24,000 bases of DNA from Acidobacteriota bacterium (GTDB lineage Bacteria; Acidobacteriota; Vicinamibacteria; Vicinamibacterales; SCN-69-37). The stretch covers positions 875 through 24,874 of the forward strand of contig JBLNGH010000339.1 of NCBI GenBank assembly GCA_050264575.1, in the 5' to 3' direction. The notes beneath the pieces were generated by a model. It searched no databases and was not told the origin of the DNA. It saw only the letters and a list, made by a program, of their open reading frames with translations. The position numbers and the translations under genes were made by a program. Of the stretch, positions 12,527 to 22,017 are shown piece by piece (position 1 is the first letter of the stretch; every line of letters begins with the position of its first letter).

Positions 12527-12570
12527 CCTGTAGGACCTGTAGGACCTGTAGGACCTGTAAGGACCTATAC
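12527..12570 (+). repeat. Tandem 9-nt repeat (CCTGTAGGA x3, then CCTGTAAGGA, then CCTATAC) filling the otsB/mqnD-like intergenic region and ending in a TATACT -10-like box
   Basis: Read directly: CCTGTAGGA CCTGTAGGA CCTGTAGGA CCTGTAAGGA CCTATACT. TATACT (12566-12571) lies 7 nt before the ATG at 12579, and there is no SD. Confidence 0.8.
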
Positions 12571-12578
12571 TCCTTTTC

Positions 12579-13412
12579 ATGCGCATTTCCGTCGCCCACA
12601 GTCCTGACTCCGACGACGCGTTCATGTTCTTTGGATTGGCGAGCGGGGCCGTGCGCGCCGACGGCCTCGAGTTCGATCAGATCCTGGCCGATATCGAGAC
12701 GCTCAATCAGGCGGCCTTCGAAGGACGGTACGACGTCAGCGCCGTGTCGTTCCACGCCTACGCGCACCTCGCGGACAAGTACGCGCTCCTGCCGCATGGC
12801 GCCAGCATGGGCGATCGCTACGGCCCGATTCTCGTCGCGAAGCGCCCGCTGGCGGAGGACGGGTCGCTCGCCGGGGTGCGTGTCGGCGTCCCCGGGCGAT
12901 TGACGTCGGCATTCCTGGCCTTGCAGCTGTACGATCCGTCCTTCGATTTCGAGGTCGTTCCGTTCGACCAGATCCAGCAGGCCGTCGTGGAGGATCGGGT
13001 CGATGCCGGACTGCTGATTCACGAGGGGCAGCTCACCTACGCGGCCGACGGGCTGAAGAAGATCGTCGATCTGGGCGAATGGTGGTTCGATCGGACGGGC
13101 GGTCTGCCGCTGCCGCTCGGCGGCAACGTGATCCGCCGGGACCTCGAGCCCGCCACGGCGCGGACGGTGTCGCGGATCCTGCACGACAGCATCGCCCATG
13201 CCCTCGAGCATCGGGCCCAGGCGGTCGAGTACGCGAAGCAATTCGGCCGTGGATTGGACTCCCGGGACACCGATCGGTTCGTCGGAATGTACGTCAATCA
13301 GCTCACCCTGGATTACGGCACCCGGGGCCGCGCCGCCCTCGACCGGTTCTTCGGCGAGGCGTACGAGCGGGGACTTATTCCTCGCAAGATCTCGGCAGAT
13401 TTCGTCAATTGA
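12579..13412 (+). CDS. mqnD: MqnA/MqnD family protein of the futalosine menaquinone pathway, most like 1,4-dihydroxy-6-naphthoate synthase (MqnD)
   Basis: The N-terminus is MRISVAHSPDSDDAFMFFGL..G.......F......DIETLNQAAFEGRYDVSAVSFHAY.....YALLPHGASMGDRYGPILV. It parallels the remembered MqnD pattern SPCPNDTF.F.AL ... DIE.LN ... DV.K.SFHA ... GaalG.g.GPl. The subfamily assignment is by eye. Confidence 0.65.
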   Translation: MRISVAHSPDSDDAFMFFGLASGAVRADGLEFDQILADIETLNQAAFEGRYDVSAVSFHAYAHLADKYALLPHGASMGDRYGPILVAKRPLAEDGSLAGVRVGVPGRLTSAFLALQLYDPSFDFEVVPFDQIQQAVVEDRVDAGLLIHEGQLTYAADGLKKIVDLGEWWFDRTGGLPLPLGGNVIRRDLEPATARTVSRILHDSIAHALEHRAQAVEYAKQFGRGLDSRDTDRFVGMYVNQLTLDYGTRGRAALDRFFGEAYERGLIPRKISADFVN

Positions 13413-13413
13413 C

Positions 13414-13454
13414 GCTGGAAAGCCGGAAAGCTCGAAAGCCGGAAAGCTGGAAGC
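13414..13454. repeat. Array of 8-nt GGAAAGCY units; left member of an inverted-repeat pair bracketing the first SH3 gene
   Basis: The sequence is GCTGGAAAGCCGGAAAGCTCGAAAGCCGGAAAGCTGGAAGC. Its first 27 nt are the exact reverse complement of 14496-14522. Confidence 0.85.
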
Positions 13455-13511
13455 GTGCGCGAGCGGGGGTGGGGTGGGGCCCCGCGAGCACTGAAAAGAA
13501 GAAGCAAGCCG

Positions 13512-14474
13512 ATGCGATTTCAATTGGTGAAGGTGGGTGTGTGTCTGGCGCTCGCGACTGCCATCGCTGCGCAGGAACCATCGGTCGTTCGAGTCACGGC
13601 AGCGCGGGCAACTCTTCGAGCTGAACCCTCCGAGACCGCTCCTGCCGTCGACGAAGTCATGGCCGGCGCGGTCTTCGAGCTGGCGCGGGTCGAAGGCGAC
13701 TGGTTTCGCGTCATCCTTCCCCCAGACCCTCGCCTGAAGGGTGCACGCGTCCACGCATACCTGTCGCGGAAGGCCGCCAGCCAGGTTGCCGGCACGGACG
13801 CCGCCAGTGCCCTGACTCTGTCCCGCGCGCCCCGCCGAAGCCCGCTCGCAACCAGCGTCAAGGTCGGCGTCGACGCCGGGGGCCCGACCACATGGTTGTC
13901 GGCACGGGCCGTCAACGCGTCTCTCGTCCCCGGCCGGCCGGAGTCGGTGCCCGCAGCCGCATCGATCGCTGTGTTCGACGGTCCACCAGGGGCAACGACA
14001 CCTGAGCCACCAGGGTCGGAGGTCATCGGGACCTGGGTCTGGGCGATCTCGCCGGGCGCGCCTTCGGTCACGATAACTGCCGGTCAGCCGAGCTTTTTCG
14101 TGGCCTATACCGAGTTGCCCGACCTGAATTCAGCCGATTTCGTGCCCTCGCTGATCAAAATCGTGCCCGGCAAGTCGGGATGGCGCTTGCTCTCGATCGC
14201 CGCCGGCCGGGCCGGCGCGCGATCGAATGACGAGGCGGACTGGGTCGTCCTTCGTCAACTGAAACAGGAGGTCGTACCGACCAGCCTCGACGGCAGCGGT
14301 CCCGGACTGGTGCAGGTGCGCCCGCGCGTCGCCTTGAGTCCCGGTGAGTACGCGATCGTTCTTCGGCCGGCGTACGCGCGCGGCTATTCCGGCCGCGAGA
14401 TTCTGAACGACGCCGGCGCCGGGTCCGTTTTCAGCGTCGCGTGGACCTTCACCATCAAGCCCGCGCGTTTCTAA
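13512..14474 (+). CDS. Secreted protein: signal peptide, bacterial SH3 domain, low-complexity linker, and an uncharacterised C-terminal domain (paralog 1)
   Basis: The start is moved to the internal ATG at 13512, giving the signal peptide MRFQLVKVGVCLALATAIAAQEP. The SH3_3-like block is VVRVTAARATLRAEPSETAPAVDEVMAGAVFELARVEGDWFRVILP. The C-terminal domain aligns with the next ORF (PSFFVAY, LSPGEYAIVLRP, VAWTFTIK). Confidence 0.7.
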   Translation: MRFQLVKVGVCLALATAIAAQEPSVVRVTAARATLRAEPSETAPAVDEVMAGAVFELARVEGDWFRVILPPDPRLKGARVHAYLSRKAASQVAGTDAASALTLSRAPRRSPLATSVKVGVDAGGPTTWLSARAVNASLVPGRPESVPAAASIAVFDGPPGATTPEPPGSEVIGTWVWAISPGAPSVTITAGQPSFFVAYTELPDLNSADFVPSLIKIVPGKSGWRLLSIAAGRAGARSNDEADWVVLRQLKQEVVPTSLDGSGPGLVQVRPRVALSPGEYAIVLRPAYARGYSGREILNDAGAGSVFSVAWTFTIKPARF

Positions 14475-14481
14475 TCGCGCT

Positions 14482-14522
14482 CTTCCAAGCCTTTTGGCTT
14501 TCGAGCTTTCCGGCTTTCCAGC
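14482..14522. repeat. Right, inverted member of the GGAAAGCY array pair
   Basis: The reverse complement of 14482-14522 is GCTGGAAAGCCGGAAAGCTCGAAAGCCAAAAGGCTTGGAAG. It has 27 exact nt plus a degenerate 14-nt extension relative to 13414-13454. A T6 run follows. Confidence 0.85.
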
Positions 14523-14591
14523 TTTTTTGGCTCCCATCGAAATCTGTAATTCACATCTATATCTGTAAGAAGTCGTACCGATAAGAGAGCC

Positions 14592-15722
14592 ATGAAAAGA
14601 CTCTCAATCTCTCTCGTCACCGTACTCGGAGTCATTCTGGCTACCGGGTCCGCTTTCGCGCAGACCGCCGGCACCGTCAAAGTGACCGCGCCGCGCGCGA
14701 ACGTGCGATCGGGGCCGAATCAGAAGAGCCCAATCCTTGCCCGGGTGAGCGTCGGTACCACCTTCAGACTGCAAGCTGTCGAGGGCGAGTGGTACCGGGT
14801 CCAGCTGCCCGCGTCGTCTCGGGCAGCCAAGACCCGAAAGACCGCGTTCATTTCGCGGAAGGTTTCGTCGGTCGTCACGCCGCCCGCGCCCGCGGTTTCG
14901 TCCGCGCAGCCGGTTTCACGGCCGCCGGCCGCCTCGCGCACAGCGGCCTATTCACCGGCGCCGGCTGTTTCTCCCGCGACTGCCATTCCCGCTGAGCCAA
15001 CACCGCTGCCTCCACCGCCGGTGGCGGAGTCGCTGGCACCGGCGATGCGGGGGACGCCTCTGCCATCGCCGCCGCTGGCGCCGCTGCTCAAGGCGACCTC
15101 GGCTCCGCTCGCTCCGGTCAGCCGCGACGGCATGTCGGTCGCGTTGCAGACCGGAGGCGGATCGACGTGGATGCCATCCTCGTCCGCGCGTGTGTCGAAG
15201 ATGCTCGAGAAGGTTGGTTCGGTGCCGGAATTCGCCAAAACGCTTCCTGCCGGCGAAGGGTCCGGTGCCGCAGCGACGGGGACGACGCCGATCACCTATG
15301 TCTGGACGGTCGATGGGAACACCTCGAGGCTCGTGGATGAGGCCCGGCCGACCTTCGTGGTCCAGTACAAGGATGTGCCGGGCGTGAGCCCCGACGAGGT
15401 CATTCCCGTCATCGTCCGGCTGACCCCGACCGCAGCGGGCGAGCGCTTCGTTGGAGCGGCCAAGGGACGGGCGGACGAAGCGGTCCGGCCCGGCGCGGAA
15501 TGGGACATCTTCCGCGAATGGAAGCAGGAAATCGTCAAGACTGAGTTTGAAAAGGTCGGCCGGGGCGCCGCGAAGGTTCGTCCAGCGAGCGATCTCAAGC
15601 CCGGCGACTACGCCGTGGTCCTTCGGATGAGGGACCGCAAGAAGCTGCCGGGCGCGACGGTGCTCTCCCCGTCGGGCGAAGGAAAACTCTACACGTCGGT
15701 CTGGCCGTTCACGGTCAGGTGA
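14592..15722 (+). CDS. Secreted protein: signal peptide, bacterial SH3 domain, Pro/Ala/Ser-rich linker, and an uncharacterised C-terminal domain (paralog 2)
   Basis: The signal peptide is MKRLSISLVTVLGVILATGSAFAQT. The SH3-like block is VKVTAPRANVRSGPNQKSPILARVSVGTTFRLQAVEGEWYRVQLP. The C-terminal blocks PTFVVQY, LKPGDYAVVLRM and SVWPFTVR match paralog 1. An AGAGAG purine run precedes the ATG. Confidence 0.75.
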   Translation: MKRLSISLVTVLGVILATGSAFAQTAGTVKVTAPRANVRSGPNQKSPILARVSVGTTFRLQAVEGEWYRVQLPASSRAAKTRKTAFISRKVSSVVTPPAPAVSSAQPVSRPPAASRTAAYSPAPAVSPATAIPAEPTPLPPPPVAESLAPAMRGTPLPSPPLAPLLKATSAPLAPVSRDGMSVALQTGGGSTWMPSSSARVSKMLEKVGSVPEFAKTLPAGEGSGAAATGTTPITYVWTVDGNTSRLVDEARPTFVVQYKDVPGVSPDEVIPVIVRLTPTAAGERFVGAAKGRADEAVRPGAEWDIFREWKQEIVKTEFEKVGRGAAKVRPASDLKPGDYAVVLRMRDRKKLPGATVLSPSGEGKLYTSVWPFTVR

Positions 15723-15734
15723 GGCGGGGAGCCC

Positions 15735-15754
15735 GGAGCCGCGGAGCCGCGGAG
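15735..15754. repeat. Tandem 8-nt repeat GGAGCCGC x2.5 occupying the 33-nt gap between convergent genes
   Basis: Read directly: GGAGCCGC GGAGCCGC GGAG. It contains two CCGCGG palindromes. Confidence 0.6.
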
Positions 15755-15755
15755 A

Positions 15756-16415
15756 CTAGGGGGCCAAAACATCCGCGAACACAAACCCTTCGCGCTCGAC
15801 GATGACGCCGGGTTCGATCGCGATGGGATGACCGAACATCGGTCCGGAAAAACAGAAGGTATGAAACTCGCCGCGCTCGCCGCACGGGTCAACACCCGGC
15901 GGCAGCTCGGCGAGGAGTGACGAATCGAAGCGGCGCCCGGCGAACCGGCGATCGAGCTGCCGCGGATCCACGCAGGTGAGAACCGCGCCCAGCCCGGACG
16001 CAAGCATCTCACGCGCGAGCGCATCCGTCGGCCGTTTCCAGAGCGGAAAGATCGGATCGAGTCCGGTGCCCGCCAGCCGCGATTCGCGGTACTGCCGGAC
16101 GTCTTCGAGAAAGAGATCGCCGAACGCGACGTGCGTCAATCCTTCCAATCGCGCGCGCGCCATCGCATCACGCATCCGCGCCTCGTAAATGTCGTTCGGA
16201 CAGGGCGATGGAATCGGTACATTCCAGAGCGGCAGGCCGGCCGCCTCCGCTTGCGCTTCGACAAGCGTTCGCCGGACTGCGTGCATCGCCACGCGATCCG
16301 CCTCCGCGTTGAACGTGGTCAGCAACGCGTGCACCTGCACGGCCGGATCCTGCCGGAGCACATGCAGGGCCCAGGCGGAATCCTTGCCTGACGACCACGA
16401 CAGCAGCACTTTCAT
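15756..16415 (-). CDS. Dph6-related / MJ0570-like PP-loop ATP pyrophosphatase (adenine nucleotide alpha-hydrolase superfamily, ATP_bind_4 type)
   Basis: The N-terminus MKVLLSWSSGKDSAWAL carries the SxGKDS PP-loop. Also present are FGDLFLEDVRQYRE, PLWKR and CGERGEFHTF. The ATG overlaps the upstream stop (ATGA at 16412-16415). Confidence 0.7.
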   Translation of the reverse strand: MKVLLSWSSGKDSAWALHVLRQDPAVQVHALLTTFNAEADRVAMHAVRRTLVEAQAEAAGLPLWNVPIPSPCPNDIYEARMRDAMARARLEGLTHVAFGDLFLEDVRQYRESRLAGTGLDPIFPLWKRPTDALAREMLASGLGAVLTCVDPRQLDRRFAGRRFDSSLLAELPPGVDPCGERGEFHTFCFSGPMFGHPIAIEPGVIVEREGFVFADVLAP

Positions 16416-21597: not shown

Positions 21598-21659
21598 CGG
21601 GACCTCCTCGGCGTGTCTGCGCGCCGATCCGCGCTGAGTGATTCAGCGTCGGGTGAAGG

Positions 21660-21945
21660 ACGGCCCGGTGACCAGGTATCCTGACTCGCGAATCATCGCC
21701 GGCATCCGCGTCTTCCCACGCCGTGGAAGTCCCACGCGCGCAGTGACGGCCGGGGAATCGATCTATCGATTCATCGATCTATCGATCTATTGAAAATCAC
21801 TTGTCCTGGCACGCAAGGTCTTCAAAAGATCGATAGATCGATAATCCGGTAGATCGATTCACCCAGTCATTTTGGGACGCCGACTCCTCGCTGACAGTGG
21901 CGGCACCGTGTGGGATTTGCACCCACTTCCCTTGCCGCCGGGCGA
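21660..21945 (-). promoter_or_regulatory. Cobalamin (AdoCbl-type) riboswitch in the 5' leader of the TonB-receptor/ABC operon
   Basis: On the minus strand, AAGGGAAGTGGGTGCAAATCCCACACGGTGCCGCCACTGTCAG (plus 21891-21933) matches the GGGAA...GGTG.AAATCC...CCGCCACTGT core. GGCCGTCACTGCGCGCGTGGGACTTCCACGGCGTGGGAAGAC lies downstream and resembles the GCCACTG...GGGAAG element. The B12 box AGTCAGGATACCTGG is at plus 21672-21686. GCCCGG (21938-21943) can pair with CCGGGC (21662-21667) as a closing helix. A candidate -10 box TATACT is at plus 21965-21970. Confidence 0.8.
21752..21864. repeat. 113-nt near-perfect palindrome built from ATCGAT-containing 8-nt units (ATCGATCT / ATCGATAG), embedded in the riboswitch between the core and the B12 box
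   Basis: The plus strand reads GGGGAATCGATCTATCGATTCATCGATCTATCGATCTATTGAA, then a 25-nt loop, then TTCAAAAGATCGATAGATCGATAATCCGGTAGATCGATTCACCC. The arms are complementary except for one 7-nt internal patch, one mismatch and one bulge. Confidence 0.85.
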
Positions 21946-22017
21946 ACGTCGGTTGTCTGGCCGGAGTATAGCATGTCAAAATGAGCCGACAGTTCGACTC
22001 GAGCCCCACGGAGGAGC

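Follow-up and report, generated by a model that had tools for sequence, protein, structure and literature searches.

A gene for a secreted protein with a bacterial SH3-like domain, SH3a, stands between two inverted arrays of the 8-nt unit GGAAAGCY in a 24,000-nt stretch of an Acidobacteriota genome (Vicinamibacterales, SCN-69-37; contig JBLNGH010000339.1, positions 875 to 24,874). This whole stretch is called the window, and the two arrays are called the left and the right arm. We favor, with moderate confidence, the interpretation that each arm is an independent member of one young repeat family specific to the lineage. The two would flank an ancestral gene of 1 kb by chance, and the right arm would be the remnant of a local hairpin. 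Chance bracketing is indicated because the arms are 2 of about 65 family copies in a genome with about 1,600 arrays. The family is young and the gene old, since the family pattern was found 24 times here and in 0 of 60 relatives, and SH3a is ancestral and colinear in two related genomes, G002 and G006.

The host assembly (G000) is a fragmented metagenome bin of 682 contigs, 6.05 Mb and 65.6% G+C, with a completeness of 90% and a contamination of 6.8%. The window lies on its contig C339. Genome-wide gene calls are approximate; they come from a home-made caller, which put btuF on the wrong strand, for example. G001 and G002 served as same-genus comparison genomes, and G006 belongs to another genus.

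The 27-nt perfect inverted repeat that a sequence-only reading of the window had described was confirmed. Positions 13414-13440 are the exact reverse complement of 14496-14522, where the 27-mer has its only other occurrence in the window, and 100 shuffles yielded 0 inverted matches of 27 nt. The degenerate extension was likewise borne out, as the ungapped pair reaches 35 nt at 91% complementarity (13414-13448 with 14488-14522). Tandem Repeats Finder (TRF) supported the description of the arms as tandem 8-mers, reporting 13414-13452 (period 8/16) on the left and 14497-14525 (period 8) on the right. The left arm (13414-13453, plus strand) repeats the 8-nt unit GCYSGAAA five times in tandem and has its GGAAAGC form on the sense strand; the TGA of the preceding gene, mqnD, ends 1 nt before it. 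The right arm (14488-14528, minus strand) comprises 3.5 units of the GGAAAGCY family, with the GCTTTCC form on the plus strand. It begins 13 nt past the TAA of SH3a and closes with six T; its AGCTTTTTT ending recurs at C404:16896-16935. The distance between the arms is 1039 nt.

The arms had been said to enclose precisely one gene together with its upstream region. The single gene was confirmed, but the upstream region is not a plain one. The left arm and the SH3a start are separated by 58 nt, most of which (13453-13505, plus strand) is, according to BLAST matches, a truncated copy, retaining the 3' part, of another dispersed element that is GC-rich and about 80 nt long when full. About 35 copies of this element are present in G000, and copies with 83-92% identity occur in G001, G002, G006, G008, and G012. 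Its full copies often have tandem arrays of diverse families next to them. For one full copy, folding was more favorable on the opposite strand (z = -2.9), and Rfam gave no match.

The arms belong to a large family. A scan for at least three GAAAGC units at 8-nt spacing found 65 GGAAAGCY arrays on 58 contigs, 56 of them outside gene calls. Both arms carry the marks of this family, namely at least three 8-nt units with the GAAAGC core (five on the left, 3.5 on the right) and many dispersed copies. Thus, the 27-mer, for which a genome search had been proposed, proved to be part of a common dispersed intergenic family. The best match of the left arm is C501:8570-8605 (36/36) rather than the right arm. 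In an all-against-all comparison of 68 related arrays, the right arm was 5th in similarity to the left arm, and the left arm 2nd in similarity to the right. The three-unit variant pattern common to both arms is also present on contigs C9 and C353. Since the variant pattern and better matches are found elsewhere, the 27-nt identity largely reflects the family consensus. Selection for a stem was considered as the source of the arm complementarity and rejected, because partners are rarely mutual best matches even in short hairpins (3% of cases). The pattern GGAAAGC-NN-GAAAGC-NN-GAAAGC had 24 exact matches in G000 and none in 60 further genomes from its taxonomic family, G001 and G002 among them.

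The placement of the family members is regular. Sense-form arrays begin between -11 and +13 nt from a stop codon in 29 of 31 cases, and the solo arrays between co-directional genes are sense versus antisense in a 15:4 ratio. The left arm is typical in these respects, being intergenic, in the sense form, and directly behind a stop codon. Elsewhere in the family, five clear and three degenerate short inverted pairs were found. These close pairs have spacers below about 150 nt and a fixed polarity; the SH3a pair shares the canonical polarity, but its spacer is 1039 nt. By our own arithmetic from the array and gene-gap counts (56 arrays, about 4,300 gene gaps), about 0.36 inverted neighbor pairs of this family would be expected by chance, and one was observed.

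SH3a (13512-14474, plus strand, 320 aa) is the first of two tandem paralogs; SH3b (14592-15722, plus strand) lies outside the bracket. The listed open reading frame (ORF) spans 13455-14474. Translation most likely begins at the ATG at 13512 and not at the GTG at 13455, because the signal peptide starts there and the alignment with the ortholog start agrees. The assignment of both genes as SH3 paralogs was upheld for SH3b (Pfam SH3_3, 33.1 bits against a cut-off of 27) and was marginal for SH3a (SH3_4, 23.9 bits against 24.1). The two proteins share only 30-42% identity, and the duplication is therefore old. Orthologs of SH3a stand between mqnD and SH3b in G002 (50-53% identity, split over two frames in the assembly) and in G006 (37-41%).

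SH3b is kept in G001, G002, G006, G011, and G014, and in G001, G011, and G014 the SH3b type occurs alone, without SH3a. In G001 (C3:19500-25500), a 7-mer array (AGGCCCR) stands behind mqnD, and the conserved SH3b leader comes next. SH3a was probably lost in the G001 lineage, and its absence implies that the bracketed gene is dispensable. Over 20 kb around the locus, the order is colinear with G001 and G002, and the absence of SH3a from G001 is the sole gene-scale difference. The sites flanking SH3a in G002 hold other repeats: mqnD is followed by GCTTTGAG in three units, and behind SH3a stands an intact short hairpin built of GGTACGGCG units.

These comparisons bear directly on the first proposal of the sequence-only reading, that the pair is the footprint of the event that duplicated or inserted the paralog as a cassette. 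The geometry, in which the arms enclose exactly one of two paralogs, is what speaks for it. However, SH3a orthologs occupy the same site in G002 and G006, flanked by different repeats or none, so the arrays are not such a footprint. The age of the duplication and the absence of the family pattern from all 60 relatives point the same way, and we give the cassette footprint practically no credence. The proposed synteny check thus came out against a cassette, both paralogs being present without these arrays in G002 and G006. A miniature inverted-repeat transposable element (MITE) or composite transposon was also rejected, given that SH3a is ancestral at its site and that no clear target duplication was seen at the C35 locus described below. 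An integron cassette with attC sites was rejected as well; the arms are inverted tandem arrays, and no integrase was seen among the ORFs.

On the favored interpretation, the left arm would be an ordinary solo array laid directly behind the mqnD stop. The right arm would be the remaining half of a local hairpin formed after the SH3a stop, its partner gone save for a 5-nt stub. The 27-nt identity would then stem from the family consensus, with no special relationship of the arms, and the appearance of a bracket arises because both arms adjoin the same 1-kb ancestral gene. Two side effects would be possible, a weak substrate for homologous inversion and an RNA duplex of 35-45 bp when the arms are co-transcribed. 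Nothing indicates selection for either. The repeat families would most likely have spread through a selfish, REP/MITE-like (REP, repetitive extragenic palindromic) or repair-associated DNA process.

GGAAAGCY is one of dozens of families with tandem units of 7-9 nt, which occupy the short gaps between genes in the host. TRF arrays with at least 3 copies number 638 with period 7, 592 with period 8, and 306 with period 9, a large excess. After the removal of overlaps, about 1,600-1,700 arrays of period 6-10 were left, in dozens of unit families. Arrays sharing 11-mers were counted as one family in the pairing analysis. Same-family inverted pairs at most 150 nt apart numbered 166, compared with 5.5 expected after label shuffling. 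Most arrays belong to families that form such close inverted pairs. Within each family, the polarity is fixed and the spacers are variable. Half-elements are common in G000, and the array family at a given intergenic site differs between sister genomes. A motif of some 25 nt (around GATGGCCAGCGTCAGTTCGTTCC), with a small stem before it, recurs in the hairpin spacers of different unit families (on C150, C406, C296, C416, and C430, and at a G002 locus).

Several observations weigh against the independence of the two arms. Label shuffling ignores contig differences, and direct pairs were therefore used as an internal control. At 250-1000 nt, like-array pairs of all families were inverted versus direct in a 22:5 ratio, and among solo arrays, neither with a close partner, the ratio was 15:1. 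The SH3a pair, at 1045 nt, lies at the edge of the range with inverted excess. Its polarity, GGAAAGC first and GCTTTCC second, is that of the family's short hairpins, and the similarity of the arms is within the top few percent of the family. The right arm is likewise intergenic and has the antisense form, which is the rarer one. Antisense-form arrays on C501, C460, and C508 have degenerate local partners, whereas the right arm has no recognizable one; only the 5-nt stub is present, as the mini-hairpin AAGCC-TTTT-GGCTT (14487-14500, plus strand, read from the sequence). This lack of a local partner is the main point in favor of a link between the arms. Finally, insertions and an inversion coincide with some like-array pairs elsewhere in the genome.

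These points would be accommodated if both arms came from one event of the same DNA process that makes the short array-spacer-inverted-array elements. Such a process would sometimes leave up to about 1 kb between the arms, for instance through break repair or template switching with arrays at both junctions. SH3a would then be the enclosed segment, rejoined in its original orientation. The end of the gene fits this proposal, since its last four codons (PARF) and stop (14460-14474) are additional to the G002 ortholog, which stops directly after ...KIK. The difference indicates that the junction behind the gene was remodeled, and the sequence bringing the right arm may have replaced the original stop codon of SH3a. 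We nevertheless judge a linked origin unlikely. The inverted-to-direct ratio falls to 7:4 at 1000-1250 nt and to about 1:1 at longer distances, and the arms are not mutual best matches. We know of no enzyme or template for such a process and found none, with no search made for Y1 transposases.

The contents of like-array pairs elsewhere provide further evidence on a linked origin. In four pairs, the interior (0.43-0.7 kb) is missing from the orthologous site of G001 as well as of G002 (C35:7984-8472, C394:2306-3114, C296:16384-16969, and C275:690-1475, the second pair on that contig). The C35, C394, and C296 interiors are single-copy in G000, and the second C275 interior was compared only within G000. 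Of the three interiors searched for, those of C394 and C296 had no match in 20 relatives. The C35 interior encodes a 129-aa membrane-like protein, and its sole homolog among 30 relatives is distant, in G017, and lacks flanking arrays there. C35 was also the only locus at which the filled and empty sites were inspected, and no clear target duplication or other junction signature was seen, which speaks against the linked origin.

An inversion was found at C168, where inverted GGTTCCGR arrays, 69 nt and 45 nt long, flank a thioesterase-like gene (15333-15931). The gene is flipped relative to both flanking genes in comparison with G001, G002, G003, G006, and G011, and the array behind its stop codon moved along with it. 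An assembly error seems unlikely, because the arms share only about 23 nt exactly; both this inversion and the insertions were seen in assemblies alone. The SpoIID-like gene of G006 that corresponds to the C450 locus is likewise inverted relative to G000, G001, G002, and G011. Its flanks on G006:C12 hold a 25-nt unit in 4.9 copies and one inverted copy 981 nt away.

Other interiors are colinear with the relatives, namely those around rplL on C406, an esterase on C44, the C450 and C430 loci, a NUDIX gene on C275, and the SH3a locus itself. Brackets around colinear ancestral genes number about 5-6, compared with 5 direct pairs. As the two are about equally frequent, the inverted excess is carried by inserted or rearranged interiors and not by brackets around resident genes, a point against the linked origin for SH3a. 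A transposon with cargo was rejected as well, since the ORFs between arrays (rplL, rpsD, thioesterase, NUDIX, esterase, and others) are ordinary genes with no relation to one another and the interiors are single-copy. By eye, and with no family or Y1 transposase search made, none of the 28 ORFs between like-array pairs looks like a transposase. Two array-bracketed ORFs (C251:10042-10524 and C275:914-1345) resemble, by eye, four-helix-bundle proteins of the 23S rRNA intervening-sequence type.

In a more general form, inverted like-array pairs would mark a DNA process that encloses up to about 1 kb of arbitrary DNA, whether filler, captured foreign DNA, or a neighboring gene in either orientation, with SH3a as one such event. 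We find this doubtful. If it were true, the repeats would be agents or scars of gene-scale insertion and inversion and not passive intergenic clutter. The sequence-only reading had named, as evidence against itself, a dispersed repeat without a pairing preference and relatives carrying both paralogs without the repeats. The dispersal and the relatives were found as described, but an absence of pairing preference was not, since the inverted preference is real, mainly below 1 kb.

The pair had also been proposed as a set of sites for recombination or inversion. At the SH3a locus we found no evidence of this. The order and orientation of SH3a are the same as in G002 and G006, and therefore no inversion has been fixed; support exists only for the class of repeats, through C168 in G000 and the SpoIID-like locus in G006. 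An active switch, in which the arms act as recombination sites and SH3a flips within the population, would draw on these precedents and on the length of the repeat. A perfect inverted repeat of 27 bp is near the minimum length for homologous recombination. However, no recombinase is evident beside the pair, the orientation of SH3a is ancestral, and the arrays are generic, being present at 65 places. A flip would part SH3a from its conserved context with no obvious promoter logic. We consider an active switch very improbable. The statement that the window holds no recombinase agreed with the ORFs, among which none was seen (three neighborhood proteins were run against Pfam). An invertible switch with an adjacent site-specific recombinase was rejected, as none was seen among the neighboring ORFs.

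A further proposal was a functional long-range RNA pairing. In this model, read-through from mqnD would put the two arms into a single transcript, where some 40 bp of duplex would seal the SH3a message for RNase III cutting or exonuclease protection, by analogy to the processing stalks of rRNA genes or the stems of intervening sequences in 23S rRNA. The predicted duplex is strong (-73.5 kcal/mol, compared with local folds of -12.5 and -15.7), and the pairing probability is about 1 in the fold of a 1141-nt RNA. The left arm lies in an untranslated leader. A consensus scan found no terminator-like site between mqnD and SH3a and no promoter-like site, and called nothing at either arm, including the T-run of the right arm. 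It returned one terminator-like site, on the minus strand inside SH3a, at a rate no higher than in shuffles. Brackets around rplL and rpsD also fit this model.

Nevertheless, such a fold is expected of any 35-nt inverted repeat. No pair-specific covariation was found at the locus or in the short hairpins, and the orthologous genes in G002 and G006 lack matching arms. None of the 60 relatives searched has the family pattern, so that no conserved function can be tied to the family. A functional RNA pairing, although physically possible, is therefore improbable, in our estimate.

We compared the arms with known repeat systems. The closest published description that we found is that of the 'class 1 global regulator binding sites' of Geobacter metallireducens, with four tandem octanucleotides per site (Aklujkar et al. 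2009, PMC2700814). These sites form opposite-strand pairs at variable distances, are multicopy, inter- and intragenic, and species-specific, and have no known function; the binding of an IHF/HU-type protein to them was offered as a hypothesis only (PMC2700814). Their paired tandem-octamer architecture matches the SH3a pair. The unit is GTTGCTYN there and GGAAAGCY here, and the phylum is different. Moreover, the present genome has dozens of families and about 1,600 arrays, and the arms of the SH3a pair are 1 kb apart with a gene between them. As the unit and the organism differ, we regard the similarity as a resemblance and not as homology.

REP sequences, bacterial interspersed mosaic elements (BIME), and REP doublets forming hairpins (REPIN) are high-copy, short, intergenic, species-specific repeats, often behind stops, that form inverted hairpin doublets and are mobilized by REP-associated tyrosine transposases (RAYT). 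The families described here share the copy number, the short intergenic form, the frequent position behind stops, the inverted doublets, and the species specificity. They are unlike REP and REPIN in that their arms are arrays of 7-9-nt units and not single imperfect palindromes of 20-40 nt. The arms show no GTAG or CGTC head, their spacers are hypervariable, and many families coexist.

The short tandemly repeated repetitive (STRR) heptamers of cyanobacteria are 7-nt tandem units dispersed between genes, with several families per genome. The present arrays are alike in their dispersed short tandem units and several families, but differ in period, base composition, and taxon; to our knowledge, STRRs have not been described as obligate inverted pairs. 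Rickettsia palindromic elements are palindromes that also occur in frame inside genes. They consist of 100-150 nt of unique sequence, whereas the arrays here are built of a short unit. In 23S rRNA intervening sequences, or S23p-type cassettes, a small gene stands between inverted repeats that form an RNase III stem. Two brackets in G000, those on C251 and C275 mentioned above, are similar in that they enclose ORFs of the four-helix-bundle type, by eye. SH3a differs, being an ordinary ancestral secreted protein, and the stem around it is a predicted one.

The neighbors of the pair are otsB, mqnD, the two SH3 genes, a Dph6-like gene, and btuF. The upstream gene mqnD (12579-13412, plus strand) was in the ORF list and encodes an MqnD-like menaquinone biosynthesis protein of the futalosine pathway (Pfam VitK2_biosynth, E = 1.9e-75); it is kept in 25 of 30 relatives. 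The gap between otsB and mqnD is filled by a CCTGTAGGA array of 4.3 copies (12527-12566), and a GGAGCCGC array of 3.5 copies (15728-15754) lies between the convergent SH3b and Dph6-like genes. A tandem array is thus present in four consecutive gene gaps around SH3a. In an Rfam scan of the window, no match was found at the arms or the SH3a leader, and the sole match was a cobalamin riboswitch at 21654-21971 on the minus strand (RF00174, 48.8 bits, model positions 1-189 stretched over 318 nt). This match runs across arrays of ATCGATCT units at 21757-21858.

Where tandem-unit repeats occupy nearly all gene gaps of a genome, as here, even a striking 27-nt inverted repeat around a gene is no evidence of a cassette or a switch. 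The literature has little on the coexistence of dozens of array families with a strong preference for inverted pairs. In sister genomes, the same intergenic site is taken by different families, and the GGAAAGCY family is confined to G000 in comparison with 60 relatives. New here are the counts of inverted and direct pairs by distance, the finding that GGAAAGCY is restricted to G000, and the examples of insertion and inversion between like arrays. If the link between the arrays and these events were causal, the repeats would drive genome rearrangement on a small scale in a phylum that is among the most abundant in soil.

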